NCBI GenBank assembly: GCA_041664425.1
Contig: JBAYKU010000001.1
Span: 29,272-93,271 of the forward strand
Direction: 5' to 3'
DNA: 64,000 nucleotides
DNA from: Minisyncoccota bacterium
GTDB taxonomy: Bacteria > Patescibacteriota > Minisyncoccia > Phycocordibacterales > XYD1-FULL-46-19
The translations under genes were made by a program, and so were the position numbers. This document shows, one piece after another, positions 1,005 through 57,527 of this stretch. The notes beneath the pieces are model-generated. The model was not told where the DNA came from, did not search any database, and saw only the letters and a program-made list of their open reading frames with translations. How positions within the stretch are numbered: position 1 is the first letter of the stretch; every line of letters starts with the position of its first letter.

Positions 1005-1030
1005 TTTAAAATTTATTCAATAGGGTAAAT
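1005..1030 (+). promoter_or_regulatory. Conserved 26-nt leader block TTTAAAATTTATTCAATAGGGTAAAT ending at the pilB start codon
   Basis: Identical sequence at 12958-12983, just upstream of the ORF at 12990. Confidence 0.4.
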
Positions 1031-2765: not shown

Positions 2766-2766
2766 A

Positions 2767-3993: not shown

Positions 3994-4000
3994 TTTAAAA

Positions 4001-5806: not shown

Positions 5807-6420
5807 TAAAAAACATTAACAACAAAAAACTAGGCTTTTCTCTTATAGAGATTTTAGTCGTGATGGGAATCGTTGTTTTGATTGGTGGTTCTGTCGCTAC
5901 TTTTCAGCGTGATGTTATTGTCCATAACAGCATGATTCAATCTGGAGCGATAGCAGAAGATGGCGTTAGAAATACTTTGCGTCAAGTTATTGGTGAGTTG
6001 CGCAGCGCTTCTCCCGCTCAAACTGGGGCTTATCTTCTATCGGCCGTCGCTACTAATACCATTACTTTTTATAGTGATATTGATAGTGATGGTCTGCGCG
6101 AACGGGTTAGATATTTTCTCTCTGGCACTGATTTTAAAAAAGGTATCGTTAAACCAACTGGTCAGCCATATATCTACAATATTGCCAATGAGCAAATTAG
6201 AACCGTTTCGCCCAATGTCATTAATGCCACTACTTCCATTTTTTCTTATTACGATACCAACTATAATGGTTCTAGTTCTGCCCTCAGTCTGCCAATTGAT
6301 ATCGCCAAAGTGCGTTTGATTAAAATAAATGTCGGGATTGATCCTAATCCTGGTCGCCCCTTGCAAGCGATGTGGGTATCTTCGCAAGTAATGATTAGGA
6401 ATCTAAAAGATAATTTTTAA
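5803..6420 (+). CDS. Pseudopilin (minor pilin) with a prepilin N-terminus
   Basis: MIKNINNKKLGFSLIEILVVMGIVVL carries the G|FSLIE motif. Its ATGA overlaps the upstream stop, suggesting translational coupling. Confidence 0.6.
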   Translation: MIKNINNKKLGFSLIEILVVMGIVVLIGGSVATFQRDVIVHNSMIQSGAIAEDGVRNTLRQVIGELRSASPAQTGAYLLSAVATNTITFYSDIDSDGLRERVRYFLSGTDFKKGIVKPTGQPYIYNIANEQIRTVSPNVINATTSIFSYYDTNYNGSSSALSLPIDIAKVRLIKINVGIDPNPGRPLQAMWVSSQVMIRNLKDNF

Positions 6421-6422
6421 AA

Positions 6423-7841
6423 ATGGAAAGATTGTTATTTAAAAAGAAAAGTGGCTACCTCCTGATTTCTGTCTTGGTTTTTGGGTCTATCGGCGCCATG
6501 ATTATTGGAGTCTTAACTACTTGGCTGGGCACTAATTGGCGAGCAACGATTCAAGTTTCTGAAAGAGAGAGGTCTTTCCAGATTGCTGAAGCTGGAATTG
6601 AATATTATCGTTGGCACTTAGCGCACAGTCCGTTGGATTTTAAGGATGGTACGACGGTTGCTGGTCCCTATGTTCATGAGTTTAGAGACCGGGACAACAA
6701 TTTAATTGGTAGTTTTGAGTTGATTATTACTCCACCTTTGACTGGCTCAACAATTGTCACTATTTTATCTCGTGGCCGAGTAGTCGGTAGCACGGCGACA
6801 AGAGCGATTGAGGTTAAAATGGCGGTACCTTCTCTGGCAAAATACGCAGTGGTGGCCAATAACGTGATGCGCTTTGGTGAGGGAACCGTGACTGTGGGCC
6901 CAATTCACTCCAATGGCGGTATCCGCTTTGATGGGGTAGCTCAAAATTTAGTGACTAGCGCCAAAGATAAATATACCGACCCTGACAGTCCATACGAGCT
7001 AGCTTTTGGTGTTCATACCCACTCCGGTTCCGATGATCCTTCTCCACCTGCCAGTATGCCTAGCCGAGTAGATGTTTTTCAATCCGGTCGGCTATTTCCT
7101 CTGCCTGCGGTTGACTTCTCTGGCTTCACGGCCGATCTGGCTCAAATCAAGACGGATGCTCAGTTTACTGGTAAATATTTTGGTTCGTCTGGTAGCCTTG
7201 GTTACAATATTATTTTAAAAACTGATAATACTTTTGATGTCAAAAAAGTAACGTCACTAGTTTCACCAGACAGTAATTGCTCTACTGATGGTACGACGGG
7301 GTGGGGGACTTGGTCTATTGGAAATACTAGTGCGGTTGGCAATTACCCAATCCCGGCCAATGGACTGATTTTTGCTGAGGATAATGTTTGGGTGGAAGGG
7401 CAAATTAACAATTCTCGAGTAACAATTGTCGCTGCGACTTTTCCTGAAACAACCAATACCTCTAAGAGTATTACTATTAATAAAGACGTTCTCTATACCA
7501 ACTATGATGGTCGAGATGTTATTTCCCTGATCGCTCAGAAAGATATAAATGTGGGACAAGTCAGTGATAATGATTTGCGTATAGATGCTGCCTTGGTGGC
7601 AAAAAATGGTCGCGCGGGTAGATACTACTATAGTACTAGCTGTGATTATAATTCACGTAATTCTTTGACCTTGTATGGCATGATTGCGACCAATAACCGC
7701 TACGGTTTTGCCTATACCAATGGCACTGGTTACGACACACGCAATTTGATCTATGATGGTAATTTGTTGTATGGCCCTCCGCCGTCATTTCCTCTGACAG
7801 CAGAAAACTACGTTGTGATTTCATGGCGAGAGGTTAGGTAA
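6423..7841 (+). CDS. Type IV pilus minor pilin/assembly protein with a PilX-N-like hydrophobic N-terminus
   Basis: N-terminus KKSGYLLISVLVFGSIGAMIIGV resembles the PilX N-terminal domain. It is the last gene of the pilB-pilC operon. Confidence 0.5.
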   Translation: MERLLFKKKSGYLLISVLVFGSIGAMIIGVLTTWLGTNWRATIQVSERERSFQIAEAGIEYYRWHLAHSPLDFKDGTTVAGPYVHEFRDRDNNLIGSFELIITPPLTGSTIVTILSRGRVVGSTATRAIEVKMAVPSLAKYAVVANNVMRFGEGTVTVGPIHSNGGIRFDGVAQNLVTSAKDKYTDPDSPYELAFGVHTHSGSDDPSPPASMPSRVDVFQSGRLFPLPAVDFSGFTADLAQIKTDAQFTGKYFGSSGSLGYNIILKTDNTFDVKKVTSLVSPDSNCSTDGTTGWGTWSIGNTSAVGNYPIPANGLIFAEDNVWVEGQINNSRVTIVAATFPETTNTSKSITINKDVLYTNYDGRDVISLIAQKDINVGQVSDNDLRIDAALVAKNGRAGRYYYSTSCDYNSRNSLTLYGMIATNNRYGFAYTNGTGYDTRNLIYDGNLLYGPPPSFPLTAENYVVISWREVR

Positions 7842-7858
7842 CCATTAGTTTTTAAGAT

Positions 7859-7893
7859 AATCACCAGCACGCTTCGCGTGCTGGTGATTTTTT
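7859..7893 (+). terminator. Rho-independent terminator after the pilus operon
   Basis: aatcaccagcacgc-ttcg-gcgtgctggtgatt followed by tttttg. Confidence 0.65.
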
Positions 7894-7907
7894 GTTAGAA
7901 TAGGCCC

Positions 7908-8675
7908 ATGAAAAAACTAATTATCGGCAATTGGAAGATGAACCCCACCAGCCTCGCCGAGGCCAAGAAGATTTATACCGGGGTCAAAACAAAAGTTAGT
8001 GGTTTGCGCAATGTCAGTGTGGCTATTTGCCCACCCACCGTCTATCTCGGTGTCTTTTCTGCTACTTCTAAAGGTAAAACTAGCTTGATGTTGGGCGCCC
8101 AAGACACTCACTGGCAAGAATCCGGGGCTAGTACGGGTAATATTTCACCTTTAATGCTTAAAGACCTAAAAACTAGCTATGTTTTAGTGGGTCATTCTGA
8201 GCGACGGGCGACCGGGGAGACTGATGAACAGGTCAAACTAAAAATTAAAGCTATCCAAGAATATAAAATGACCTCTGTCCTCTGTGTGGGCGAAAAAGAA
8301 CGAGATGAAAGTGGTCATTATTTGGCGGTAATTAAGCGTCAGATTGAAGATGGCCTGGAGGGATTACCTAAAAAAGCGGCTGAAAAATTAGTGATTGCTT
8401 ATGAACCGGTTTGGGCTATTGGTAAGGAGGCTAAGGGGGTAGAGACACCAGAAGGTTTCAATCATAATATGATTTTTATTCGTAAAACTCTCAGCTATAT
8501 TTTTGGTCAGAAAGAAGCTCTCAAAATCCCTATTCTTTATGGTGGTTCTGTCTCTTCTAAAAATGCCGATAGTTTCCTGCGTGAAGGTCGGGCTGATGGT
8601 CTATTGGTTGGCCGGGATTCTTTGACCGCCAGCAGTTTCGTTGAAATCATTAAAATTGCCAATCAAATAAAGTAG
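7908..8675 (+). CDS. tpiA: Triosephosphate isomerase
   Basis: MKKLIIGNWKMNPT with conserved TIM motifs. 255 aa. Confidence 0.9.
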   Translation: MKKLIIGNWKMNPTSLAEAKKIYTGVKTKVSGLRNVSVAICPPTVYLGVFSATSKGKTSLMLGAQDTHWQESGASTGNISPLMLKDLKTSYVLVGHSERRATGETDEQVKLKIKAIQEYKMTSVLCVGEKERDESGHYLAVIKRQIEDGLEGLPKKAAEKLVIAYEPVWAIGKEAKGVETPEGFNHNMIFIRKTLSYIFGQKEALKIPILYGGSVSSKNADSFLREGRADGLLVGRDSLTASSFVEIIKIANQIK

Positions 8676-10586: not shown

Positions 10587-12344
10587 ATGGCAAAAGAATG
10601 GCAATTAGCTAAAAAACCAGCCCCCTCGGCAGTTAAAAGTTTGTCTGGATACTCGGACCTGGTTTCTCGATTACTTTTTTATCGTGGTGTTAAAAATAAA
10701 ACAGTCGCTGAAAAGTTCCTCAATCCTAATTATGAGACCGATCTCCATGATCCATTTTTAATGAAAGACATGGACCGGGCCGCTAAGAGGGTGCTGACAG
10801 CGATTGAATATGACGAGAGAATCATTATTTTTGGCGATTATGATGCTGATGGAGTGCCGGGGACAGCCATCATGGCCACTTTTTTTAATCAAATTGGCTT
10901 TACCAATTACGAAGCCTATATTCCTGATCGTCACAATGAAGCCTACGGTTTAAATTCCAAAGCTATCGAAAAATTTGCCAACAGTGGTGCCAAGCTGATT
11001 ATTACGGTTGATTGTGGTATTACCAATTTTGAAGAAGTGGTCTTTGCAGATAAGTTGGGTATCGAGGTGATTATTACTGACCACCATCTCGCTCCAGAGA
11101 AAATTCCACCCGCTTATGCTGTCGTAGACGCCAAACAAAACGATGACCAGTATCCATTCAAGATGCTTTCTGGGGCCGCGGTGGCTTTTAAACTAGTATT
11201 AGCCATTTCTAAACTAAAGGATTTCAATTTAGTTCCTGGCTGGGAGAAGTGGTTGTTGGACCTGGTGGCTATTTCCACTATTACTGATATGGTGACTTTG
11301 GAGGATGAGAATCGGACCCTAGCTTTTTTTGGTTTGAAGGTTCTGCGTCAGACCAAGCGCTTGGGTTTGGTCAATTTGCTAGCGGTAGCTAAAATTGACG
11401 GCGTTCATATTACTGAGGACGATGTTGGTTTTATGATCGGACCCAGACTTAATTCAGCCAGTCGTATGTCTCATGCCGATGATGCCTTTTCTTTGATTAT
11501 GACCAAAGACCAGGCTGAAGCCCGAGCCATAGCCGATCAGCTCGAAAAACAAAATAAGGGTCGCCGTGAAATCGTGGAAAAAATAATTCAAGATGTTGCC
11601 CGTTTGTATGATAGCGATAATGATTCTTCAAAAATAATTGTTATGGGATCGCCAGAGTGGGGTCTGGGTGTTTTGGGTCTGGCTTCATCACGTTTGGTAG
11701 AAAAATATGCCAAGCCAGTTTTTTTGTGGAGTAAAAATGGCAATGGTGAGATCAAGGGTTCTTGTCGTTCTGATGGTTCTATTAACGTGGTGGAACTCAT
11801 GCGGGCAGTAGGGCCTGATTTCTTTATTGATTTAGGTGGACATGCTATGGCTGGGGGCTTTTCTCTATTACCGGAGCGAGAAGCTGAATTGGCTGTCCGT
11901 CTAAACGGTGCTTTGGAAAAAATTCCCCAGACGGAAGTTGAAGCTATAATCATTGCTGAAGCCGAGCTGACTATTGATGATATAAATCGTCAGACGGCCG
12001 ACGAAGTCTTGTCCCTAGCTCCTTTTGGGGTAGGAAATCCTAAGCCGATTTTTCTCTTGAGAGATTTATCGTTAACTGAAGTAAAAAGTTTTGGCAATGG
12101 GGGGCTGCATTTGGAATTAAAATTTACCAAAAACGATGGTTCTTTAGTCACGGCCATAGGCTTCTTTATGTGTAAGCCAACCTTTTTTGCTGAAAAGTTT
12201 GATAGTAAAAATGGCCATAAGTTTTCCGAAGTTGATTTGGCCGTCGGCCGGCGAGTTGACCTACTAGCCTCGATCGAAAAAAGCTATTTTAGGGGACGGG
12301 AAGAGATTAGATTGAGGATTGTTGATGTTCGTCATCCTAAATAG
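10587..12344 (+). CDS. recJ: Single-stranded-DNA-specific exonuclease RecJ (DHH family)
   Basis: DHH motifs (ITDHH) and a DHHA1 region. 585 aa. Confidence 0.85.
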   Translation: MAKEWQLAKKPAPSAVKSLSGYSDLVSRLLFYRGVKNKTVAEKFLNPNYETDLHDPFLMKDMDRAAKRVLTAIEYDERIIIFGDYDADGVPGTAIMATFFNQIGFTNYEAYIPDRHNEAYGLNSKAIEKFANSGAKLIITVDCGITNFEEVVFADKLGIEVIITDHHLAPEKIPPAYAVVDAKQNDDQYPFKMLSGAAVAFKLVLAISKLKDFNLVPGWEKWLLDLVAISTITDMVTLEDENRTLAFFGLKVLRQTKRLGLVNLLAVAKIDGVHITEDDVGFMIGPRLNSASRMSHADDAFSLIMTKDQAEARAIADQLEKQNKGRREIVEKIIQDVARLYDSDNDSSKIIVMGSPEWGLGVLGLASSRLVEKYAKPVFLWSKNGNGEIKGSCRSDGSINVVELMRAVGPDFFIDLGGHAMAGGFSLLPEREAELAVRLNGALEKIPQTEVEAIIIAEAELTIDDINRQTADEVLSLAPFGVGNPKPIFLLRDLSLTEVKSFGNGGLHLELKFTKNDGSLVTAIGFFMCKPTFFAEKFDSKNGHKFSEVDLAVGRRVDLLASIEKSYFRGREEIRLRIVDVRHPK

Positions 12345-12359
12345 TATTATTCAAGAGTT

Positions 12360-12812
12360 ATGGCTAAATTTATAATCTATACTGACGGTGGTTCGAGGGG
12401 TAACCCTGGTGTAGCGGGCTGTGGAGCCGTGGTGGCGGATGCTTCAAACCAGGTGCTTAAGAAGGCTTCTAAGGCTCTAGGAACAGCTACAAATAACGAA
12501 GCCGAATACCAGGCCGTTATTCTCGGATTAGAAACTCTTAAAAAAATAATTAGCGGTGAAAAGCTGAGACAAGCGGAGGTGGAGGTTAAAATGGATAGTC
12601 AATTAGTGGCTAGTCAACTGGCTGGCACCTACCAATTGCGAGAGGAAAGGCTTTTTCCGTTTTTTATTAAGATTTGGAATTATCAAGTAAAAGATTTTCC
12701 CAAAATAAAATTTACCTATATTCCACGCGCACAAAATAGTCTGGCTGATGGTTTGGCTAACGAGGCAATGGATGGTGTCGGTGACAACCAAAACAAATTA
12801 TTAGATTTTTAG
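12360..12812 (+). CDS. rnhA: Ribonuclease HI
   Basis: FIIYTDGGSRGNPGVAGCGAVV RNase H fold motif. 150 aa. Confidence 0.8.
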   Translation: MAKFIIYTDGGSRGNPGVAGCGAVVADASNQVLKKASKALGTATNNEAEYQAVILGLETLKKIISGEKLRQAEVEVKMDSQLVASQLAGTYQLREERLFPFFIKIWNYQVKDFPKIKFTYIPRAQNSLADGLANEAMDGVGDNQNKLLDF

Positions 12813-12841
12813 TGACCGGCCTCAAAAACCGGTTTTAATTT

Positions 12842-12891
12842 TCACCCTATAGAATAAAAATTGTTTACAATTTTAATTTTAAATTAAGACA
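12842..12891 (+). promoter_or_regulatory. Second copy of the conserved promoter/operator block (TTTACA-N16-TAAGAC)
   Basis: Near-identical to 883-943. -35 at 12864-12869, -10-like at 12886-12891. Confidence 0.45.
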
Positions 12892-12957
12892 GTAATTTTA
12901 TTCTTACATCATCACAAAGCCAATTAGTAATTAATGTATAGGGTCGTTAAAAAATAA

Positions 12958-12983
12958 TTTAAAATTTATTCAATAGGGTAAAT
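12958..12983 (+). promoter_or_regulatory. Second copy of the 26-nt leader block TTTAAAATTTATTCAATAGGGTAAAT
   Basis: Identical to 1005-1030. Lies 6 nt upstream of the ATG at 12990. Confidence 0.4.
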
Positions 12984-12989
12984 AAATAT

Positions 12990-13343
12990 ATGGCAACTGA
13001 AGGTTTTAATTTTGATACTTTGGGCAGAGAAGGAGAAATTCCTGAGAATGCTCGTCAAGCAGAACGCGAATTTACTGAGACTTATTCTGATAGTCGAGAA
13101 AAAAATCGTCAGCACGATTTACTGTGGAGAGTTATTGCTAATAAGAAAGTGGATAATATTTTAGATATTCCTACCGAACAACTGCCAGAGCTTTATGCGG
13201 CGGCTAGATTATTTTCTCAGCCAGCAAATTTTAAAGAATTAACAGGTGGGGCAGAGAGCTGGCAAGTGACGAGGGCAGAGAGATTGATTAGTCAACTATT
13301 AAGAGATGCTGAATTGGCCGAGAAAAGAGGGGCTGCCGCTTAG
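12990..13343 (+). CDS. Hypothetical acidic protein, first gene of the comEC locus
   Basis: 117-aa ORF with no recognisable motif. Shares its upstream regulatory module with pilB. Confidence 0.5.
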   Translation: MATEGFNFDTLGREGEIPENARQAEREFTETYSDSREKNRQHDLLWRVIANKKVDNILDIPTEQLPELYAAARLFSQPANFKELTGGAESWQVTRAERLISQLLRDAELAEKRGAAA

Positions 13344-14805
13344 TTTTTTACGTCAACTTCTCTTTTTTCTCATCCTGGGATTTTTTGTTGGAGTAGTTGT
13401 TTCGATAAATCAATTTGTTTTTGGCTGGTTGATTTACCTCTTTGCTGGTTGGGGAGTGGTCGGATTATTTTTAGCTTGGCGCTACCAAGTTTCTCGTTTT
13501 TGGTTGCTAATATTTAGTGTTTTTTGTTTGGGTCTGGTCTTGGGACAATGGCGAGCTATGCCTAGAGAAAATTGGGGCGCCAATATTTGTTCTGATCTGG
13601 GGCATAATTTCTCTGGTCTAGTGGTGGCTGAGCCGGTAGCTGGAGAATTTAATCAACGTCTGGTTGTTCGACCGGCTGGAAAAAATTTTAATGTTTTACT
13701 TTTTGCTAAACGTGATGGCGATTGGCGTTATGGTGATGAAATCAATTTTCAAGGTAGTCTCCAAGAGCCAAAAAATTTTCAAACTGACACCGGCCAAGAG
13801 TTTGCCTACAAAAATTATTTATTGAAAGATAATATTTTATGTCTAGGACGAGGTGGGCAAGTGACCTGGCTGTCTGGCGGTCACGGTTCAAATACGAAAC
13901 GAGTTTTGTTTACTGTTAAAAAAGAATTTTTAAATACTATCAATCGTTACTTGCCCGCTCCGCAGTCCTCATTATTGTCAGGAATTTTATTGGGGGTGCA
14001 GTCGTCTTTACCACAAACAGTGTCCGATGATTATCGTCGAGCGGGCCTGACTCACATTTTAGTTTTGTCGGGACAAAATATTTCTATTATTGCCAGTGCC
14101 TTGATGATTATCTTTGGCTGGGCTGGGCCATTGATTTCTTTTGTGATTGTTGTGACTGGCTTGGTTCTCTTTACTCTCATGGCCGGGGCTGGAGCGTCAG
14201 TGGTCCGGGCGGCTGTCATGGGTCTCCTAGTGGTGTTGGCTCGAGCCGTCGGTCGACCTTATGCTGGCGGTCTGGCTTTGGTAACGGCCGGCGCTCTAAT
14301 GGTTTGGTTTAATCCTCGACTGCTAGTTTTTGATCTCGGTTTTCAGTTATCTTTTCTCGCCACGCTCGGACTTTTTTATGGTACACCCATGATGGCTCGA
14401 TTATTAAAATTTTTACCCGCCACTTGGGGTTTGCGAGAAATCACCAGCATTTCGGCTGGAGCAATTTTATTTACTTCGCCCTGGTTGGCTTATTCTTTTG
14501 GCCAACTATCTCTGGTGGCCTTGCCGGCTAATATTTTAGTGGTGCCAACTGTAGAAATGACAATGTTGTTTGGTTTTTTGACTGTGGTCTTTGGTTGGTT
14601 ACAAATACCCTTCGCTTGGCCCTTGGCCTTTATCTCCAGTCTGTTATTAAAATGGAATCTTTTTATTACTAGTTTCTTTGCTCATTTGCCGGGAGCTTCG
14701 ATTGTTATTAAAAATGTTTCTTTGGTGTTTGTGATATTTTTTTATTTAATTATTTTGGGAGCTGTTCTCCATGACAAAAAACTCAGTCAAAAAAAATCGA
14801 CTTGA
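13306..14805 (+). CDS. comEC: ComEC/Rec2 DNA-internalisation channel, N-terminal OB/DUF4131 plus competence membrane domain
   Basis: 499 aa, polytopic. Contains the ComEC competence-domain motif LTHILVLSGQNIS. Confidence 0.75.
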   Translation: MLNWPRKEGLPLSFLRQLLFFLILGFFVGVVVSINQFVFGWLIYLFAGWGVVGLFLAWRYQVSRFWLLIFSVFCLGLVLGQWRAMPRENWGANICSDLGHNFSGLVVAEPVAGEFNQRLVVRPAGKNFNVLLFAKRDGDWRYGDEINFQGSLQEPKNFQTDTGQEFAYKNYLLKDNILCLGRGGQVTWLSGGHGSNTKRVLFTVKKEFLNTINRYLPAPQSSLLSGILLGVQSSLPQTVSDDYRRAGLTHILVLSGQNISIIASALMIIFGWAGPLISFVIVVTGLVLFTLMAGAGASVVRAAVMGLLVVLARAVGRPYAGGLALVTAGALMVWFNPRLLVFDLGFQLSFLATLGLFYGTPMMARLLKFLPATWGLREITSISAGAILFTSPWLAYSFGQLSLVALPANILVVPTVEMTMLFGFLTVVFGWLQIPFAWPLAFISSLLLKWNLFITSFFAHLPGASIVIKNVSLVFVIFFYLIILGAVLHDKKLSQKKST

Positions 14806-14820
14806 GATATAATTGACCTA

Positions 14821-15648
14821 ATGAATTTGAATTGGCAAAAAATCAAATGGCTCGGTCTCGGTTTATTAACCTTGATTACTATTTTTGTTTGGGTGGCTAT
14901 TTGGCAATTGGCGCCATCTCCGAAAATGTCTGTAGCTTTTCTCGATGTTGGCCAGGGTGACGCAATCTTGATTGATACTCCGCACCATCGGCAGGTTTTA
15001 TTGGATACTGGCCCAGGGTCAGCCGTCCTGCCATCTCTAGGTCAGGCGATGCCATTTTTTGATCACTCTCTGGATTTGATTTTACTTAGCCATGGCGATA
15101 GTGATCACTCTGGCGGCCTGTCTGATGTCTTGTCTCACTATTCTTTGGATTATTTTCTGGCTGGTAATTGGGCGATTGGTAATAAAAAAGTTATTGGTAA
15201 AAATGATTTTCTATCAGCTGAAGCGGGGACAAGGATAGAATTGGAGCCAAATATTTTTCTCGATGTTATCGAAGGGGGAACCACTAATAAAAAAGATAAT
15301 GTTGATTCGCTGGTGGCTAGATTGAGCTACGGTTCAACGACTTTTTTATTGACCGGTGATTCTGTCTCTAAAGAAGAAACTGATGAAATAAATAAATTGG
15401 GGGATTATTTGCAAGCCGATGTTCTGAAAGTGTCTCACCATGGTTCACGGACTTCGACTAGTGGTAATTTTTTAGTGCGAGTACGACCACCGTATGCCGT
15501 GATTTCGGTCGGGGCGGATAATCGTTATGGACATCCTACTGCCGAAACATTAGAGCGTTTGAAAAAAATTGGGGCAGAAATTTTACGGACCGATGAACAG
15601 GGGACGATTGTGTTTGAGAGCGATGGCCAAAAAATTATCAAAAAATAA
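14821..15648 (+). CDS. ComEC C-terminal metallo-beta-lactamase domain as a separate ORF
   Basis: VAFLDVGQGDAILID ... LLSHGDSDHSGGL ... LKVSHHGS. Separated from the upstream ORF by 15 nt, with stops in all three frames. Confidence 0.75.
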   Translation: MNLNWQKIKWLGLGLLTLITIFVWVAIWQLAPSPKMSVAFLDVGQGDAILIDTPHHRQVLLDTGPGSAVLPSLGQAMPFFDHSLDLILLSHGDSDHSGGLSDVLSHYSLDYFLAGNWAIGNKKVIGKNDFLSAEAGTRIELEPNIFLDVIEGGTTNKKDNVDSLVARLSYGSTTFLLTGDSVSKEETDEINKLGDYLQADVLKVSHHGSRTSTSGNFLVRVRPPYAVISVGADNRYGHPTAETLERLKKIGAEILRTDEQGTIVFESDGQKIIKK

Positions 15649-17465: not shown

Positions 17466-17891
17466 ATGCCTACAATCAATCAATTGGTTCGCAAGCCTCG
17501 TAAACCGCTCATCAATAAATCGAAAGCGGTTGCTTTAGCTCGCGGTTTTAACTCTCTTAAAAACAAACCAGTTTTCTACCCATCACCTTTCAAGCGCGGT
17601 GTCTGTTTGTCGGTTAAAACGACTACTCCAAAGAAGCCAAACTCTGCTCTCCGTAAAATTGCTCGTGTCCGTTTGACCAATGGTATGGAAGTGACCGCCT
17701 ATATTCCAGGTGAAGGTCACAATTTACAGGAACACTCAGTGGTCGTGATTCGTGGTGGTCGGGTTAAAGACTTGCCAGGTGTTCGTTATCATATTGTTCG
17801 TGGTGTCCTCGATGCCTCTGGTGTTGATAAGCGCCGTCAGGGTCGTTCCCGTTACGGTTCCAAGCGTCCAAAGAAGGATGGTAAAAAATAA
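17466..17891 (+). CDS. rpsL: 30S ribosomal protein S12
   Basis: [14 protein letters not shown]-terminus. The ATG at 17466 is preferred over the upstream track start. Confidence 0.9.
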
Positions 17892-17914: not shown

Positions 17915-18397
17915 ATGCGTCGTCCCGTCAAAAAACCTACTCGAATCAAGCCTGATCAAAAATATAACTCGATCAAGGTCTCTAAGTTGACCAACTATAT
18001 TATGGAACGCGGTAAGAAAAATGCTGCTCGCGATGTCGTTTATGGCGCTTTTGATATTATTGCCGAAAAGACCAAGAAAGATCCGATGGAAGTCTATGAG
18101 GAAGCTCTGAACATTATCGGTCCATCAGTGGAAATTCGTTCTAAGCGTGTCGGTGGTGCTAACTATCAAGTGCCTCACGAAGTTCGTCCAGAACGCCGCT
18201 TGGCTCTAGCTTTGCGTTGGATTATTGACGCGGCTCGTTCACGCAAGGGGATGCCAATGCGACAACGTTTGGCCGAAGAATTACTTTTGGCTAGCAAAAA
18301 CGAAGGTGAAGCGGCCAAGAAAAAAGACAACGTTCACAAGATGGCCGAAGCCAACCGCGCTTTTGCTCACTTTGCTTGGTCTGGGGGTAGAAAATAA
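17915..18397 (+). CDS. rpsG: 30S ribosomal protein S7
   Basis: Conserved S7 sequence. Confidence 0.9.
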   Translation: MRRPVKKPTRIKPDQKYNSIKVSKLTNYIMERGKKNAARDVVYGAFDIIAEKTKKDPMEVYEEALNIIGPSVEIRSKRVGGANYQVPHEVRPERRLALALRWIIDAARSRKGMPMRQRLAEELLLASKNEGEAAKKKDNVHKMAEANRAFAHFAWSGGRK

Positions 18398-18513: not shown

Positions 18514-20658
18514 ATGTCTCGGGATTATCCTTTAGAGAAAGTTCGTAATATTGGTATTATCGCCCACATTGACGCTGGTAAAACTACTACTAGCGAGCGG
18601 GTGCTTTTTTATACTGGTGTGTCACATAAAATCGGTGAAGTCCACGAAGGTGAAGCGGTTATGGACTGGATGGAGCAGGAGCAAGAGCGTGGTATCACGA
18701 TTACTTCGGCGGCCACGACTGCTTTCTGGATTCCGACCTATGCTAAAGGTGATTTAGCTCAGAAACATCGCGTTAACATTATTGATACTCCCGGACACGT
18801 CGACTTTACTGCCGAGGTGGAACGTAGTTTGAAAGTGCTCGACGGTGGCGTGACTGTTTTCGATGGTGTGGCTGGTGTGGAACCGCAGTCTGAGACTGTT
18901 TGGCGCCAAGCTGATAAATATCACGTGCCACGTATTTGTTTCATTAATAAACTTGATCGCATGGGTGCTTCTTTTAGTCACTCTTTCAAAACGATCCAGG
19001 AACGCTTGTCTAAAAAAGCCGTTCGAGTCCAGATTCCTATGGGCGAAGACGATAAGCACGAAGGTGTTATCGACCTTTTGAACATGAAGGCCTATTTGTT
19101 TGAAGGGGATAAAGGAAAAGAAATTAAAGAAATTGATATTCCGGCTGAATTTTTAGATGAAGCGACTAAATGCCGAGCCGAGTTGGTAGAAAAAGTGGCT
19201 GAAAATGATGAACAAATGATGAACGATTATTTGGAGGGCAAGGAAATTGCTATTCCCGATTTAAAGCGTGTCATTCGTAAGGCGACTATTGCCAATGAGC
19301 TTTTCCCAGTTTTTTGTGGTTCGGCTTTGAAAAATAAAGGCGTGCAACTAATGCTTGACGGTGTGGTGGACTATTTACCATCACCACTCGATATCCCATC
19401 AATTAAAGGTGAAGATATTAATACGGGTGAAGAAATCGAACGACGGGCTTCCGACTCCGAACCATTTGCGGCTTTGGCTTTCAAACTTCAATCCGATCCA
19501 TTTATTGGTCAGCTGACTTTCTTCCGGGTTTATTCCGGTACTTTGGCGGCTGGTTCCTATGTCTACAACTCAACCAAGGGAGTCAAAGAGCGCGTCGGCC
19601 GTATTGTTCGTCTCCACGCTAACCATCGTGAAGAAGTGAAGGAAGTCTATGCTGGTGAAATCGCGGCCATCGTCGGTCTCAAAGATACCAAAACTTCTGA
19701 TACTCTCTGTGATGAAAATCACCCAATTATTTTGCACAAAATTATCTTCCCTGAACCAGTGGTGGAAATGCGGATTGAACCGAAAACTAAGGCGGACCAA
19801 GAAAAAATGGGCTTGGCTATGCGTCGCTTGGCTGATGAGGATCCAACCTTCAAAGTTAAAACCGATACCGAAACCATGGAGACAATTATCGCTGGTATGG
19901 GCGAATTGCACTTGGAAATTTTGGTGGAAAGAATGAAGCGCGAATTTAATGTTGAAGCTAATGTTGGTAAACCACAGGTGGCCTATCGCGAAACTATTAC
20001 CATGTCGGCCGAAGCCGAAGGTAAGTATGTCAAACAGTCTGGTGGTCGTGGTCAGTATGGTCATTGCCGTTTGCGAATCAAACCACTCGAAAAAAATATT
20101 GATCCGGACCAAAAAATCGCTAAAAATGTCAAACGCGAAACTGGTTTTGAGTTCATCAACTCTATCAAAGGTGGCGCCGTACCAAACGAATATATTCCAG
20201 CGATTGAAAAAGGCGTCAGAGAGGCGATGGATCGCGGTATTCAAGCCGGCTTCCAGGTCGTCGATGTGTCAGTTGAGCTTTATGATGGTTCTTATCACGA
20301 AGTTGACTCATCTGAAATGGCTTTCAAAATGGCAGGCTCTATGGCTTTCCAGGAGGGCGCCAAACGCGCGAAACCAGTCTTGTTGGAACCTATTATGAAA
20401 GTCGAGGTTATCGTGCCTGAGAAGTTCATGGGTGACATCACCGGTCAATTGTCTAGTAAGCGTGGTCAGATCGAATCAATGGAAGATCGCTTTGGTCTCA
20501 AGGCTATCCGAGCCAAGGTGCCTCTAGCGGAAATGTTCGGCTATGTTACCAACCTCCGCTCAATGACCGAAGGTCGCGGTACCTTCACCATGGAATTTGG
20601 GGAGTACGCGATTATCCCGAACAATGTGGCGTTGGGGATTATTGAGACGAGAAAGTAA
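18514..20658 (+). CDS. fusA: Elongation factor G
   Basis: [11 protein letters not shown]-domain motif. 714 aa. Confidence 0.95.
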
Positions 20659-20659
20659 A

Positions 20660-20835
20660 ACTACAGCTTAAACATTTTAAAACCACGAAAAAGCCCCCAG
20701 CGGGGCTTTTTCTCTGCTTCGTGTAGGCTCTTCGCCCTCGTTCCTCGCCCAGCTCGGAACAAAAATACTTAAGGGCGAAGACCGGCAGCCTACCACTACG
20801 CAAGGGTTTAAAAATGTTTAAGCTTCCGTTCGCTC
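20660..20835. repeat. Composite repeat element after fusA, bounded by inverted repeats and enclosing the fusA terminator
   Basis: Inverted copies of AGCTTAAACATTTTAAAACC (20665-20684 versus 20799-20820). Terminator at 20686-20713 and a GC-rich hairpin at 20723-20792. The right end is shared with 32798-32858. Confidence 0.5.
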
Positions 20836-20996
20836 AGGATAAGGTCTAAAAATTTTGCCAAATTTTTAAGTAGTTTACCCTTATTTTTAGGCGTTTTTGG
20901 CTGTTTGCTATTGACTTTTATACCTATTTATGCTAATATTGAAGATAGAGTTTTGTCAATTGGAGCCTCTTAGGAGGCAAGCGGAAGGATAGAAAA

Positions 20997-21554
20997 ATGA
21001 GTACAGCAATTAGTGTTTCAATCGCGGTCGTGTTGGCAGTTTTGTCGGTTGTCGTTTTTTTCTGGTTTAAGCTCCTTCCAGGGCTAGCTGTTGGTTTCCG
21101 GCAGTTTTTGATCAAAACGATAATTGCAGTAGCTGCCATGTTGGTGGTCCTTGCCATGAAACAAGGGGGAACTCCCGATTGGTATTGGCCGTTTATACAA
21201 CAAAGCCAGGTTTTCTATGTTATGACTGCCTGGCCAGAGACTTCTTCGGGTGACCATAATGCTACCGTAGTTTTTCAAAAGATGGCTGGTGGTCATCTAA
21301 AACCCAAGCAGATGATGGATGTCAGGCTTGAGGGAGATCTGCCCAAGCCTGGCCAACTGGTCATGTTTGGGAAGGGTAGTAAGCTGGTGATCGTGGGTAC
21401 TGTGGCCGAGTCTGTGACTCAGCCCGTGGCTCCGGTTGAACCAGTGGTAGCGCCAGCTTCGGATGCTGTTGTAGATCCGATTTCTACCCCCGCTGTAAAA
21501 CAGGAAAAATTCGCTCCCATCATCCCGTCGCGCAAGACGACGGCGAAGAAGTAG
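20997..21554 (+). CDS. Hypothetical membrane protein (two N-terminal TMs plus a Pro/Val-rich tail)
   Basis: 185-aa ORF. Promoter-like TTGACT-N17-TAATAT at 20904-20940. Confidence 0.5.
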   Translation: MSTAISVSIAVVLAVLSVVVFFWFKLLPGLAVGFRQFLIKTIIAVAAMLVVLAMKQGGTPDWYWPFIQQSQVFYVMTAWPETSSGDHNATVVFQKMAGGHLKPKQMMDVRLEGDLPKPGQLVMFGKGSKLVIVGTVAESVTQPVAPVEPVVAPASDAVVDPISTPAVKQEKFAPIIPSRKTTAKK

Positions 21555-21657
21555 CAAGTTTCCTCGCAGTTATCGTGCCTCGTGTCGCTCTAAGCGGTCA
21601 CGAGGCATTTGTTTTTGAAAAAAATTTCCTTGCTAGTCTTTTGGAGCGTGATAGAAT

Positions 21658-22989
21658 TTGGATAACTATATAAGTTTTAATTTTTTTAATATGAAAAAAG
21701 GTGATGCTTTTGATATGGCGAGAAAAATGAATACTGGCGATAGCCTCGATGTGACGGCTGAAGCGCCAGTGGCCGAAAAAAATAACGAGCAGGCTCTAGA
21801 TGAGTTGATGGATACTCCCGGCTTTGCTGAATTTTTAGCCAAACATCCTGAGGCTGGAGAATTGTCTGAGGCTGAAAACTTAGATCGAGTAGGCAATCTT
21901 CATGAAGCTTTTGGTAAGGTCAAGGAGACCAATAAGGAGTTGAATAGTTTTTTTAAGGACCAAGCCAAGGATTTAGGTTTAGAACTGTCAGAAGACGAGC
22001 TAAAGTTTGTTGGCGAACATATTGAAAATCTGGCAATAAACAATCCGGAAGAAATGGCGGGTTTAACAGAGACAATTAAAACCTACCGCGAAACCCCAGC
22101 CAAGATCAAAGCGCAAACGGCTGAATTGTCTAAGCACATGGAAACTTTTAATAATTATGGAGACCTGGTAGTAGAGAAGGCTAAACTAGAAGGATACGCC
22201 AATCTAACAAAGTTTGAAAAGGGTAAGGTCATGGGTTGGATTGGGGCCGTGGAACTTTTCTTTGCTGACAATAATACGGTTAGAGGCACTGTTCCCAATA
22301 AAGATGACAAGATGGCCGCTTTTGTTCATCGGGCGGCTCTCAATAAAGAGACTATTAATGAAATTCGCGACAAATACGGTTTGAAGCCAGAACAAATCAA
22401 AGAAAGGATTGAAAAGATAGAAGCTGATATTGAGCAAGCTCGGGGAGCAATGGGAAAGATGGATCAGTTACAGGAAGGGCTGACATCAGCCAAAGGAAAA
22501 ATGATGGCCGAGAACGTTTTACCCCTAGGACAAGTCAGAGAATTGCTCCAACAGAAATTATCAGAAAAAATGGCGGGGGCGGCTTTGAAAGAAGGTTCGC
22601 CTGATGACCGTTTGAAGGAATTGTCCAAGGTCCAAGAATATTTTGATCAAATGGCCAACTCAGATCTCGATCTATCTGCCGGTTTTGATAGTGGTGATTT
22701 TCAAAAAAGAGTAGATGATCTTATGGAACTTCAAGTGACCGATGGCATCTCTAAAGCTTTGGAATCAGCCAAGACTGATACTCTAACCAATTTTGAAAAA
22801 GGTTTTAAAAAATATCTTGATGGTTTGGAAAAATTAGGTACCAAGGACAAGGAGGAGGCCCAAAGATTTGTGGTTGAACAGATGTTTGAAAAAATCGGCG
22901 AATTGAATAAGTCTACTGAAAAATCAGACAAAGCTAAAGCGATCTTGCTTCGTCGGGTGGTCGCAAAGATACAAGCTAATAAAATTTAA
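21658..22989 (+). CDS. Hypothetical acidic alpha-helical protein (about 440 aa)
   Basis: Long ORF with no motif recognised. Possible alternative start at 21691. Promoter-like TTGCTA-N16-TAGAAT upstream. Confidence 0.5.
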   Translation: MDNYISFNFFNMKKGDAFDMARKMNTGDSLDVTAEAPVAEKNNEQALDELMDTPGFAEFLAKHPEAGELSEAENLDRVGNLHEAFGKVKETNKELNSFFKDQAKDLGLELSEDELKFVGEHIENLAINNPEEMAGLTETIKTYRETPAKIKAQTAELSKHMETFNNYGDLVVEKAKLEGYANLTKFEKGKVMGWIGAVELFFADNNTVRGTVPNKDDKMAAFVHRAALNKETINEIRDKYGLKPEQIKERIEKIEADIEQARGAMGKMDQLQEGLTSAKGKMMAENVLPLGQVRELLQQKLSEKMAGAALKEGSPDDRLKELSKVQEYFDQMANSDLDLSAGFDSGDFQKRVDDLMELQVTDGISKALESAKTDTLTNFEKGFKKYLDGLEKLGTKDKEEAQRFVVEQMFEKIGELNKSTEKSDKAKAILLRRVVAKIQANKI

Positions 22990-22994
22990 ATTTT

Positions 22995-23297
22995 ATGGAT
23001 ATCCAAACAGATTTAAGCCAGTTGGGAGATTTATTAGCGGCTGGTAAAAAAGATGAAGCCACCGCGCTGATCGATGCCTATATCAATCAAGATTTAAGTG
23101 ATGAGGAAAAAGGGACCGCTTATGTCGCTTGGGCCAAGGCTTATATGGATGCTTCTAATACTATTGACCAAAGTTACAGTGAGGCTTTGAAAGGCTGGCT
23201 GGAAACCCTGCGAGAGATTGATAAAGAGAGTGACGAGACAGTCAAAGAAGCTAAAGTAGCTTCACTTAAAAACGAAATTAAAAATTTTGGGGCCTAG
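22995..23297 (+). CDS. Hypothetical small acidic helical protein
   Basis: 100-aa ORF 5 nt downstream of the previous gene. Confidence 0.4.
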   Translation: MDIQTDLSQLGDLLAAGKKDEATALIDAYINQDLSDEEKGTAYVAWAKAYMDASNTIDQSYSEALKGWLETLREIDKESDETVKEAKVASLKNEIKNFGA

Positions 23298-23359
23298 AGT
23301 TTTCTAGTTGTGCACAGATTTCCTCGTTTCTGATAGTGTGTTGGTCTATAATTAAATTA

Positions 23360-23893
23360 ATGAAAAAATCTAATATCTTTGGGACTCGCCCGGTAGTGAA
23401 GTCTCGAAGAGCTTCTACTACCGGGTTTACTCTTATCGAGCTTTTAGTCGTGGTGGCGATCATCGGTCTTTTATTGGGGATTACTACTGACTATCTATCT
23501 AATGCTAGAAGTAAGGGCTCCGGAGCAGGGGTGAAGCAAAATTTAAATAGTCTGCGAACTGACTTGGCTTTGTGGCAGACCAACAATAATAATAGTAATT
23601 TACCTTGCAATATTGCCATTGCCGCCAACGGCACTAGTAGAGCTAATCAAATTTGGGCTCAAGCCAAGAGTCGGATCGGATCATCAGATTGGGGCTACTC
23701 GATCCACGGATGTGCCGCTGCTAATACCAACGTAACTGGCACCGGTTTTATTTTTGTGGCTAAATCTGGCACCGGCAAATATTGGTGTGTGGATAGTAAT
23801 AATGCCGGTAAGGAGATTACTACAATAGCTACTGCTGGTCTTACTGCTGGAGCATATACAAACGGCAGTACTCCATTCAAACTCTGCCCATAG
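23360..23893 (+). CDS. Type IV pilin (PilA-like) with a class III signal peptide
   Basis: ...STTG|FTLIELLVVVAIIGLL prepilin motif. C-terminal Cys pair (C...C) consistent with a D-region disulfide. Leader length uncertain. Confidence 0.75.
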   Translation: MKKSNIFGTRPVVKSRRASTTGFTLIELLVVVAIIGLLLGITTDYLSNARSKGSGAGVKQNLNSLRTDLALWQTNNNNSNLPCNIAIAANGTSRANQIWAQAKSRIGSSDWGYSIHGCAAANTNVTGTGFIFVAKSGTGKYWCVDSNNAGKEITTIATAGLTAGAYTNGSTPFKLCP

Positions 23894-24071
23894 CTAAAAT
23901 AAACACAAGGTCCAAGCAGCCCCCTAGGTTGACTTAATGTCTTTATTTGCTATTATTATCCCACGCAACGGCGTAGCTTTTTTGATGTTGACCGCAAGGT
24001 CTAGTCAACAAACAGGGGTTAAAAACCACTTTTTATTAAGTTAGTAGTTAATAATTAATAAGTAAAAACAT

Positions 24072-25265
<1,194 letters not shown>

Positions 25266-25276
25266 TTATTACATCT

Positions 25277-25642
25277 ATGACCGCAACGACCACTAAAAAA
25301 ACCAAAGCAAAGGTCAAAGCGACCGGAAGCGAGGAGACTTCCAAGCTTCGCATTCGGGTTTCGGCCTATGAAAACAAGATTCTTGACGCTAGTGTTAAGC
25401 AGATTGTTGATACGGCGTTGCGGTATGATGCAACGATCCTAGGTCCGATTCCATTGCCGACCGAGATCAAAAAATACACCGTCAATCGCTCAAGCTTTAT
25501 TGATAAAAATTCCCGTGAACAGTTCGAAATGCGTGTTCACAAGCGACTCGTGGATATCATGAGTCCGTCTCCGAAAATTATCGAGAGCCTGACCAATCTC
25601 AACTTGCCATCTGGCGTCAATATTGATGTCAAAATGATGTAA
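25277..25642 (+). CDS. rpsJ: 30S ribosomal protein S10 with an N-terminal extension of about 18 aa
   Basis: [13 protein letters not shown]... core. Confidence 0.85.
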
Positions 25643-25650
25643 GAAAACCC

Positions 25651-25690
25651 AAAACCCCGCCGGCCGAAAGGCTGGCGGGGTTTTGGTTTT
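25651..25690 (+). terminator. Rho-independent terminator immediately after rpsJ
   Basis: ccccgccggcc-gaaa-ggctggcgggg followed by ttttggtttt. Confidence 0.65.
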
Positions 25691-25774
25691 GTGCATAACT
25701 CTAGTTGTGATTATTTTTCTTTCTGTTATTACTTTAATTAGAAAATTGGTCTAACTGATAGTGGAGGAGGCAGA

Positions 25775-26029
25775 ATGACTATCTCAAGGCTATTGAGTTC
25801 CGATTTTGTTAGATGTCATTGCAAAGATGGAACAAGGCAATGTCTGTATTTGTCTCGATCTGCCGTCGTCGTAGATGGTGAACAAAATGAAGGCTGGTTT
25901 TGCAAAAACGGTAAGAATAAGGATGGTATTACTAGAGAAGGGGACATAACCGTTTGTGAGCTATTAGCCAGAGGCTTCAGTGGCGATTGTTACCAATTGA
26001 CAGTTACTGTCGGAAAAAAGAAGCTCTAA
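25775..26029 (+). CDS. Small Cys-rich (6 Cys) hypothetical protein inserted between rpsJ and rplC
   Basis: 84-aa ORF with strong SD GGAGGAGG 5 nt upstream. No signal peptide. Confidence 0.5.
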   Translation: MTISRLLSSDFVRCHCKDGTRQCLYLSRSAVVVDGEQNEGWFCKNGKNKDGITREGDITVCELLARGFSGDCYQLTVTVGKKKL

Positions 26030-26094
26030 GGACCCCTCACTTACATAGTCGAGGGGTCTGCGTGTTTATCTAGAGCCTTAGGAGTGGCTCAGAT

Positions 26095-26122
26095 TTGACT
26101 TTCTGCCCTTATCTGATAATAT
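26095..26122 (+). promoter_or_regulatory. Putative promoter TTGACT-N16-TAATAT for rplC and the downstream genes
   Basis: Hexamers with sigma70-like spacing. Confidence 0.4.
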
Positions 26123-26136
26123 GTTTCGAAGCTCGT

Positions 26137-26187
26137 AGGGGCTTTTTCAGCCCAAGGCTGATCGGCCTGGGGCCGAGTTTTTTTCTT
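26137..26187 (+). promoter_or_regulatory. Attenuator-like leader with alternative hairpins and a terminator-like stem plus U7 just upstream of rplC
   Basis: Three overlapping hairpins: gggct/agccc, cagcc/ggctg, and cggcc-tgg-ggccg followed by ttttttt. Confidence 0.35.
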
Positions 26188-26207
26188 AATATTGAAGCTA
26201 TATCTGT

Positions 26208-32797: not shown

Positions 32798-32858
32798 TAC
32801 CACTACGCCTGCCTGCGCAGGCAGGCAAGGGTTTTAAAATGTTTAAGCTTTCGTTCTC
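32798..32858. repeat. Second copy of the TACCACTACGC...AAGGGTTTTAAAATGTTTAAGCTTTCGTTC repeat, carrying the inserted palindrome CCTGCCTGCGCAGGCAGG
   Basis: Matches 20790-20835. Palindrome at 32809-32826. Confidence 0.5.
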
Positions 32859-32948
32859 TCAAATTTTCTCCAAACAAAAACCCAGTAGGACAGCTTGTGC
32901 TGACTACTGGGTGAACTCTTCGCGACAGATTTCTGTCGGAGGAGGTGG

Positions 32949-33278
32949 CTACTCTTGTTTGATAAATTCGATTCCATACTTCTTTTCCGTGGGTGATCCT
33001 TGGAAAATAGTAATGGAGTCAGTTACTATTGATTCCCGTTTTGTCGGTGGGACCCTTTCAAGCTTCTTTGCGTTAAAATCATCAATTGCCGCTGCAATCG
33101 ATAACATAAACGCAACTATAATCACTATGACAGAGATCGCCAGCGCTATCTCTAGATGACCAGTTTTTTTTCGAAGCTCCTCTGTTTTTTCCCAGAGCTC
33201 CTTTTTCTTCTGTCGCTCCTCTGCTGTTTCTTTCCAGGGGTCTTCTTTTTCTGTTTTCGACATTCTTCTCCCTTTCAA
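32949..33278 (-). CDS. Small membrane protein (charged N-terminus, one TM) encoded antisense within the spc operon gap
   Basis: 109-aa ORF with SD AAGGGAGAAG upstream and a consensus promoter on the minus strand. Confidence 0.55.
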   Translation of the reverse strand: MKGRRMSKTEKEDPWKETAEERQKKKELWEKTEELRKKTGHLEIALAISVIVIIVAFMLSIAAAIDDFNAKKLERVPPTKRESIVTDSITIFQGSPTEKKYGIEFIKQE

Positions 33279-33641: not shown

Positions 33642-33827
33642 ATGGCAAAAAAATCAGTCATCGCTCGTGCTCAAAAGACCCCGAAGTTTGCTTCGCGGGT
33701 TGTTCGTCGCTGTTTCCGCTGCGGACGTAAGCATGGCTATATGAGAGATTTTAATCTTTGCCGTATCTGTTTCCGTGAATTGGCCAATGATGGCAAAGTT
33801 CCGGGTATTCGAAAATCTTCATGGTAA
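33642..33827 (+). CDS. rpsZ: 30S ribosomal protein S14, type Z (zinc-binding)
   Basis: [23 protein letters not shown]. 61 aa. Confidence 0.85.
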
Positions 33828-57447: not shown

Positions 57448-57521
57448 GCGCCTGTAGCTCAGCTGGTTAGAGCACGGAGCTTATACCTCCGCGGTCCCTG
57501 GTTCGAATCCAGGCGGGCGCA
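57448..57521 (+). tRNA. tRNA-Ile with anticodon UAU
   Basis: Cloverleaf: acceptor gcgcctg/cgggcgc, D-arm gctc...gagc, anticodon stem cggag/ctccg with loop cTTATAc (anticodon TAT), T-arm cctgg-ttcgaat-ccagg. No encoded CCA. Confidence 0.75.
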
Positions 57522-57527
57522 CTAATT

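Follow-up and report, generated by a model that had tools for sequence, protein, structure and literature searches.

A Conserved Two-Gene Unit and a Type IV Pilin Gene in the Expanded fusA-tuf Junction of a Minisyncoccota Bacterium

Introduction

In bacteria generally, fusA and tuf, the genes for elongation factor G (EF-G) and elongation factor Tu (EF-Tu), are contiguous. At 51 loci from outside the Patescibacteria, the median gap between them is 93 bp, and the largest is 401 bp. In a 64,000-nucleotide stretch from a Minisyncoccota bacterium (contig JBAYKU010000001.1, positions 29,272 to 93,271; the whole stretch is hereafter termed the window, and coordinates refer to it), the two genes are separated by a spacer of 3,413 bp (20659-24071). 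This spacer contains an inverted-repeat hairpin element, an orphan gene for a protein with two transmembrane (TM) segments (mem185), genes for two acidic helical proteins of 432 and 100 amino acids (p432 and p100), and a type IV pilin gene. A first-pass annotation had rightly taken contiguity of fusA and tuf as the normal state, and the features it reported, including the open reading frames (ORFs), the inverted repeat, and the pilin, are present at or near the positions it gave. It suggested that they make up a mobile or pilus-associated module.

Much of bacterial diversity belongs to the Patescibacteria, and the majority of the conserved genes found in them are without known function. The p432 and p100 genes form an undescribed, conserved two-gene unit of uncultured small-genome bacteria, which elsewhere mostly lies beside the gene for a coupling-type ATPase. 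On balance, we lean toward reading the spacer as a patchwork of three unrelated native units at a recurrently expanded junction, rather than as one inserted element.

Anatomy of the Spacer

The genes from fusA to rpsJ all lie on the plus strand. Upstream of the spacer, rpsL (~17466-17891) and rpsG (17915-18397) precede fusA (18514-20658), which encodes an EF-G of 714 amino acids with the full Pfam EF-G domain set. The downstream border is formed by tuf (24072-25265), which encodes the EF-Tu domains, together with rpsJ (25277-25642), and a strong terminator with a 17-bp stem (25649-25686) ends the block 3′ of rpsJ.

The nested-hairpin inverted-repeat element (20665-20824) lies directly 3′ of the fusA stop codon. 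Its arms (20665-20684 and 20805-20824) are 20 nucleotides each, are complementary at 19 of 20 positions, and lie 120 nucleotides apart; the 20-mer of an arm would be expected 0.01 times in the window by chance. A segment of 181 nucleotides (20655-20835) folds as nested hairpins, with a free energy of -72 kcal/mol on the plus strand (z = -8.2 vs shuffles) and of -83 kcal/mol on the minus strand (z = -7). The inverted repeat makes the outer stem, inside of which are a terminator-like hairpin (20687-20712) and a second GC-rich stem (~20723-20797). The terminator-like hairpin reads GAAAAAGCCCC-CAGC-GGGGCTTTTTC and is followed by the U-rich CTCTGCTT. It is listed on the minus strand by the terminator scan, and its fold was computed on the plus strand (-18.3 kcal/mol, z = -4.4). 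This hairpin probably terminates fusA transcription, and it looks bidirectional.

The description that fits the element best is that of an elaborate terminator with a short repeated motif. Only its right-hand 37 nucleotides (20800-20836, AAGGGTTTWAAAWTGTTTAAGCTTYCGTTCKCTC), which comprise the right arm and 12 more nucleotides, recur in the window, and they do so once (blastn, 32825-32861, 92% identity, E = 1e-8); the exact 20-mer of the repeat is also found at 32830-32849 on the minus strand. No copy of the element is present in 88 other loci, Rfam gives no match even at E <= 1, and inspection of the sequence around the element reveals no target-site duplication. The element resembles repetitive extragenic palindromic (REP) sequences and miniature inverted-repeat transposable elements (MITEs) in being a long, nested, intergenic palindrome with a perfect stem, terminal inverted repeats, and one partly repeated end. 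It differs from them in that there are two partial copies in 64 kb (the further one being the 37-nucleotide match), in that it has no target duplication, and in that it doubles as an intrinsic terminator. The inverted ends of the first-pass annotation's repeat element are thus present, in a nested terminator hairpin of which 37 nucleotides recur a single time in the window; a MITE would be a candidate identity at most. A tRNA-like fragment or attachment site, considered for the minus-strand stretch GCGTAGTGGTA, is unsupported by ARAGORN and Rfam.

Two further observations concern the element and its motif. In an independent short-read assembly (L001, a Logan contig from SRR18595301), the contig ends within the hairpin element at its left side and a short way into tuf at its right side, which is consistent with assembly-graph trouble at palindromic or repeated sequence. 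At the second site of the motif, an unrelated nested hairpin of 190 nucleotides (-110.7 kcal/mol, z = -10) begins immediately 3′ of the stop codon of rplE, and a palindrome (32807-32826) lies beside the shared 37 nucleotides. These are followed by a minus-strand ORF of 109 amino acids with a single TM segment (32949-33278) and its own terminator, and then by rpsN at 33642.

The next gene of the spacer, mem185 (20997-21554), encodes 185 amino acids with an isoelectric point (pI) of 9.7: two TM-like helices at the N-terminus, then a small domain in the middle and a Pro/Val/Ala-rich tail. A GGAAGGA sequence lies 7 nucleotides 5′ of its ATG, and a promoter-like sequence found by consensus scan (TTGACT-17-TAATAT with an upstream TG, 20911-20939) precedes it; this consensus match is suggestive and no more than that. 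The protein has no match in Pfam, NCBIfam, PHROGs, or PADLOC, and its sole database match is itself, so that, judged by sequence, mem185 is a true orphan. Its gene would form a separate transcription unit because it is followed by a terminator-like hairpin with the U-tract TTTGTTTTT (21575-21616; -24.9 kcal/mol, z = -5.0).

A second promoter-like sequence, TTGCTA-16-TAGAAT with a TG (21630-21657), stands before p432 (21691-22989), which is followed by p100 (22995-23297) and, 62 bp 3′ of p100, by the pilin gene (23360-23893). Between p100 and the pilin gene (z = +0.7) and between the pilin gene and tuf (z = -0.6), there is no terminator and no stable fold. TG-extended promoter-like sites are found in every intergenic spacer, and the pilin and tuf genes have additional ones of their own; the best match in the region, TTGACT-16-TATTAT with a TG and 10/12 matches (23929-23956), precedes tuf. 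The predicted order is fusA, terminator, mem185, terminator, and p432-p100-pilin-tuf-rpsJ, and the spacer would not be one operon.

The p432 and p100 Protein Families

The p432 ORF encodes 443 amino acids from a TTG (21658-22989) or 432 amino acids from an ATG at 21691. Public annotation and the family alignment favor the ATG. The 443-residue acidic helical protein of the first-pass annotation is acidic (pI 5.1) and all-alpha as described, with the shorter form of 432 residues preferred. It is soluble, with no TM segment. The 432-residue form is identical to the NCBI protein WCW56_00300, from a metagenome-assembled genome of Candidatus Paceibacterota (Patescibacteria/CPR).

The p432 family was defined by searching 1.84 billion cluster representatives exhaustively with HMMER, which yields 154 representatives at E <= 1e-3 and 53 at E <= 1e-10. 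Word-index homology searches find only two proteins with p432 alone and three with a 55-sequence profile, and by themselves would wrongly imply an orphan. For the metagenome scan, the full alignment was too divergent and a 9-sequence subset was usable. The homologues are nearly all 380-440 amino acids long and align end to end with 22-31% identity. They share the motifs ALNTKGFxEFLAKHPD, AIxNPE, and EKxGSKEGDExRxF, and membership of the family is marked by similarity over the full length with GFxEFL, AIxxPE, and G(S/T)K. The p432 of the window belongs to this family (phmmer E = 1e-15 to 1e-23 over residues ~30-430), with F45, F48, P119, and G383 conserved. No family member was found in a scan of 2.9 million viral contigs.

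With the family alignment, AlphaFold2 (AF2) predicts p432 as an all-alpha protein of 17 helices, a generic helical bundle, with a predicted local distance difference test (pLDDT) score of 83 and a predicted template modeling (pTM) score of 0.72; the single-sequence prediction, with a pLDDT of 48, is useless. No match to p432 exists in Pfam, NCBIfam, PHROGs, PADLOC, PDB sequences, or PDB folds. The p100 protein (pI 4.3) has homologues of 95-99 amino acids that are 21-35% identical, with L13, G40 (the central Gly), Y50, N55, Y61, and L65 invariant. It likewise has no Pfam, NCBIfam, PHROGs, or PADLOC match, and its profile retrieves from PDB sequences only repeat-summed PPR/TPR-like noise. The earlier statement that these hypothetical proteins carry no recognizable motif thus holds for the four annotation databases, but both p432 and p100 belong to conserved, unnamed families.

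In six family representatives (P0124, P0016, P0091, P0096, P0112, and P0142), the p432-family match lies inside proteins of 750-1,300 amino acids. P0124 also contains a FliG_C domain, and the extensions of the other fused members have no Pfam match.

Genomic Context of the Gene Pair

The context of the pair was compared at 12 independent loci with enough flanking sequence: the window, L084, L085, L089 (the same as L086), L087, and L090-L096. The p100 homologue is immediately 3′ of the p432 homologue at all 12, with a 5-bp spacer in the window, and a small ORF is also found at the p100 position in two short contigs (L002 and the contig of P0008). At eight of the 12 loci (L084, L089/L086, L087, L090, L091, L092, L095, and L096), the pair adjoins the gene for an ATPase of ~920 amino acids (913-934). 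This gene is usually directly upstream and co-oriented, and at two loci a variable gene of 207-308 amino acids intervenes. The possibility that mem185 is a substitute partner was rejected, as it is unrelated to these variable genes and to the gene upstream of the pair in L002. The other flanks are variable and of a housekeeping nature, such as ParB/TopA/MiaA in L094 and enolase/MurJ in L096.

The ATPase matches DUF87/HerA, TraG-D_C, TrwB_AAD_bind, and DUF8128, as well as the TraD and VirD4-like models of NCBIfam, with all matches below the curated cutoffs, and it is without an N-terminal TM segment. A defense-system role was considered and rejected: the ATPase has a weak PADLOC mad8/HerA P-loop match, yet the pair has no defense match.

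Some secretion systems encode small, acidic, helical cytoplasmic proteins beside a coupling ATPase with which they act, as in IcmS-IcmW-LvgA with DotL and in VirE1. The p100 (pI 4.3, ~97 amino acids) and p432 (pI 5.1) proteins fit the description of such adaptor and chaperone sets of type IV coupling proteins (T4CPs). This is a resemblance in role only, and genes for a type IV secretion system (T4SS) channel are not found nearby.

It has been reported that 2,918 Patescibacteria genomes contain 5,713 VirD4-like homologues, only 148 of which are near virB4, and the authors suggest that the orphan homologues have been exapted for another function (PMC12102498). Conserved partner genes of these orphan proteins are not mentioned (PMC12102498). 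The ATPase found beside the pair is like these orphan VirD4-like T4CPs in its domain matches and in not being near virB4 (PMC12102498). It is unlike them in having no N-terminal membrane anchor, in carrying DUF8128, and in having two partner genes. Two conserved partner genes would give the orphan VirD4-like coupling ATPases, of which there are thousands (PMC12102498), a testable context.

A likeness to type VII secretion can also be drawn, in that one operon encodes a helix-turn-helix protein of ~100 amino acids with an invariant central Gly, an all-helical protein of ~400 amino acids, and an ATPase of the FtsK/HerA superfamily. However, the turn of p100 is E-K-G, without Trp, rather than W-x-G, and the ATPase is of the soluble VirD4/TraD type rather than the membrane EssC/EccC type. 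Membership of p432-p100 in the WXG100/LXG proteins was rejected, as there is no Trp in the turn and no WXG100 or LXG Pfam match.

The Pilin and the Pilus Genes of the Window

The pilin ORF (23336-23893) encodes 185 amino acids, or 177 from the ATG at 23360. It matches Pfam N_methyl with 28.2 bits (cutoff 21.2) and TIGR02532 with 27.3 bits (cutoff 16.3). Its prepilin leader, MKKSNIFGTRPVVKSRRASTTG, is followed by FTLIELLVVVAIIGLL, and cleavage between STTG and FTLIELL places Gly at -1, Phe at +1, and Glu at +5, in agreement with the G/F(M)xxxE motif. A TM-like segment spans residues 17-48, and the C-terminal domain contains four Cys residues.

Machinery genes for a type IV pilus are present in the window, namely pilB (T2SSE, E = 8e-121, 1029-2765) and pilC (T2SSF, E = 3e-55, 2767-3993). 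The prepilin leader, hydrophobic N-terminal helix, and C-terminal cysteines of the pilin, together with pilB and pilC in the window, are as in the type IVa/ComGC-like pilins of Patescibacteria; its position differs, being inside the str operon and away from the pilus machinery. The pilB and pilC genes belong to a cluster (1029-7841) that also encodes a 628-residue pilin-like protein with CarboxypepD_reg domains, a 216-residue pilin-like protein, and a 472-residue ORF. A further region (10587-15648) contains RecJ and a ComEC split in two ORFs (Competence, 13306-14805; metallo-beta-lactamase, 14821-15648).

The fusA-tuf Junction in Related Genomes

The distance between fusA and tuf was measured at 80 loci from GTDB species representatives, gathered with an EF-G query. 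Eight named Patescibacteria have gaps of 110, 453, 600, 622, 774, 961, 1,054, and 4,826 bp, four unnamed or mislabelled loci of similar content have gaps of 613, 1,780, 3,563, and 5,062 bp, and two further loci have no tuf within 3.8 kb and 7.4 kb of fusA. By tblastn and family profiles, homologues of mem185, p432, and p100 are absent within ~8 kb of fusA in all 80 relatives. The contents of the spacer are thus accessory in this position, as the first-pass annotation held, and the same four genes do not lie between fusA and tuf across these relatives.

Other genes fill the junction in these genomes. These include an N_methyl pilin (L018), two large pilins with adhesin-like domains (L023), PG_binding_1 surface proteins (L007 and L010), and membrane proteins (L006 and L008). 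The pilin of the window has no detectable similarity to the junction pilins of L018 and L023 past the N-terminus. In six loci (L012, L013, L014, L015, L018, and L023), a conserved acidic protein of 93-140 amino acids, which is absent from the window, is encoded directly 5′ of tuf; it begins MxxQLKxxIxLxKKTGDRIIxFD and has weak Phd/YefM antitoxin-like similarity. The fusA-tuf junction in Patescibacteria is a recurrent site of lineage-specific gene gain, and repeatedly the genes gained are those of pilins or surface proteins.

Which junction of the str operon is opened varies among lineages. In the closest relative, L003 (71% EF-G identity), fusA and tuf are tightly spaced, and 2 kb between rpsG and fusA (5941-7989) are filled, for example by an ORF of 247 amino acids. 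More generally, in the closest EF-G relatives, L003 and L004, lineage-specific ORFs occupy 1.6-2 kb between rpsG and fusA, with the fusA-tuf junction tight or unseen. An exact-sequence look-up of the EF-Tu of the window for sister strains returned no match.

Interpretation of the Spacer and Its Alternatives

In the patchwork reading, the first unit would be the nested hairpin 3′ of fusA, which would hold an intrinsic terminator and end fusA transcription. The second would be the orphan two-TM gene mem185 with its own promoter-like site and terminator. The third would begin at the promoter-like site at 21630 and continue through p432, p100, pilin, tuf, and rpsJ. Because no terminator occurs before 25649, the pilin and the pair would sit in, or read into, a block that is among the most heavily transcribed in the genome. 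High expression is plausibly the reason for this location, such that the pilin, and perhaps the pair, would benefit from the tuf block. The same argument has been made for genes near dnaA (PMC12102498).

Elsewhere, the pair would mostly form the 3′-terminal part of an operon that starts with the gene for a soluble FtsK/HerA-superfamily ATPase of the VirD4/TraD type with DUF8128. In this lineage, the pair and the ATPase gene would have come apart, and the latter presumably lies at another place in the genome. Conserved operon structure, rather than homology, makes it conceivable, and we offer it tentatively, that p432 and p100 form a cytoplasmic complex that works with the ATPase as adaptor/chaperone or as client. 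Such a complex may involve physical interaction among p432, p100, and the ATPase and a role in export or DNA handling. In a more elaborate version, which we regard as rather improbable, the ATPase, p432, and p100 would be a Patescibacteria-specific coupling-ATPase machine without a T4SS channel. This machine, not described before, would hand a client, protein or DNA, to another apparatus of the envelope, for instance the type IV pilus or competence system, and the relocation of the pair beside a pilin gene, with transcription at the level of tuf, would be the footprint of this link in function.

Several findings weigh against parts of this interpretation. There is no homologue of the DUF8128 ATPase in the 64-kb window, and the pair is without an adjacent ATPase at four of the 12 loci, so the link is not obligatory. 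Neither p432 nor p100 has any sequence or structural likeness to a known T4CP adaptor, chaperone, or substrate. The p432 of the window is unusually divergent, scoring 273 bits against the family profile compared to 370-437 for most others, and could have drifted in function. Promoter-like matches in the region number 15 vs 13.3 +/- 3.8 in shuffles, which is not above chance; the promoter that had been assigned to mem185 is thus present as a consensus sequence, but within a total that shuffled sequence also yields. Co-transcription of p432-p100-pilin-tuf-rpsJ is likewise a prediction, with consensus matches as its promoters. Finally, the 37-nucleotide motif and the two hairpin elements hint at a repeat-mediated process.

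In another reading, the whole 3.3-kb block would be a mobile cassette that was gained by horizontal transfer and has the inverted-repeat element as its boundary. A 20-nucleotide inverted repeat with 95% complementarity does lie at the left border, part of the element occurs again where the ribosomal-protein cluster is broken a second time, beside another small membrane ORF, the block is missing from all 80 relatives, and the independent assembly L001 breaks inside the element. However, both arms are on the left (20665-20824) and nothing comparable is found near 23900; no flanking direct repeat or target duplication brackets 20660-23900. Neither strand of the spacer has an ORF for a recombinase, integrase, or transposase, and no Pfam, NCBIfam, or PHROG match of this kind was obtained. 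In PHROGs and PADLOC, the three hypothetical proteins have no match, and the pilin has only weak pilin-type PHROG matches. Composition is native: GC content at third codon positions (GC3) is 0.39 in both p432 and p100, 0.40 in the pilin gene, and 0.51 in mem185, compared to a genome mean of 0.42 +/- 0.07, and the synonymous codon-usage distances of all four genes are inside the range of the genome. The block is also divided by internal terminators and promoter-like sites into separate units, its genes differ in evolutionary reach (an orphan, a pair with a family of ~150 clusters, and a pilin), and the pair elsewhere lies among housekeeping genes rather than in islands. The single mobile module of the first-pass annotation is not borne out by these results, and a cassette origin of the block appears very unlikely.

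The pair could instead serve the type IV pilus or competence system as a cytoplasmic accessory, with its adjacency to the pilin gene reflecting a shared function in pilin handling, assembly control, or DNA uptake. The pilin gene is 62 bp downstream with no terminator between, the 22 kb upstream contain pilB, pilC, two more pilin-like genes, RecJ, and ComEC, and one fused family member (P0124) carries FliG_C. Pilus genes are within 10 kb of the pair at five of the 12 loci: the window, L084 (where pilM and a pilN-like gene directly precede the ATPase gene), L085 (an adjacent pilin), L093 (a pilin-like gene and T2SSE), and L096 (a pilin-like gene 7 kb away). This would agree with the pilus association suggested earlier, but the ATPase is the far more regular neighbor, and five of 12 is not clearly above chance in small, pilin-rich Patescibacteria genomes. 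The other seven loci have no pilus gene within that distance, the junction pilins of other lineages come without the pair, and p432 and p100 have no likeness to PilM, PilN, PilO, PilZ, or other known pilus proteins. We consider a pilus accessory unlikely, and we also find it quite doubtful that the pair acts by itself as a cytoplasmic scaffold or regulatory unit, independent of ATPase and pilus, whose neighbors reflect operon shuffling in streamlined genomes. Such independence would agree with the pair being the only invariant unit at all 12 loci, with its otherwise variable, housekeeping flanks (L094 and L096), and with the generic helical bundle of p432. Against it, one specific ATPase family is adjacent and co-oriented at eight of the 12 loci, among members that are only ~25% identical, which far exceeds what shuffling would preserve.

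One of the most conserved adjacencies in bacteria, fusA-tuf, is routinely opened in these lineages for pilins and surface proteins. This is relevant to the way in which streamlined epibiont genomes achieve the expression of abundant surface structures. It also means that contiguity of the str operon is unsafe there as an assembly or annotation check.

Other Features of the Window

The ribosomal-protein cluster of the window is broken twice more, between rpsJ and rplC and between rplE and rpsN. The rpsJ-rplC break (25643-26207, 566 bp) contains the terminator at 25649-25686, a Cys-rich ORF of 84 amino acids (25775-26029), and a TG-extended promoter-like site at 26095. From this break and its terminator, rpsJ would be linked in transcription to tuf and not to the S10 operon.

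An acidic ORF of 352 amino acids on the minus strand (60022-61080) is a strong outlier in composition: its codon-usage distance is the largest, and its GC3 is 0.70, compared to the genome mean of 0.42 +/- 0.07. A secreted-looking homologue with 29% identity is found in L085 (15830-16915). In addition, the window encodes a tRNA-Ile (57448-57522) with the anticodon TAT (UAU), which is an uncommon bacterial way of reading AUA.

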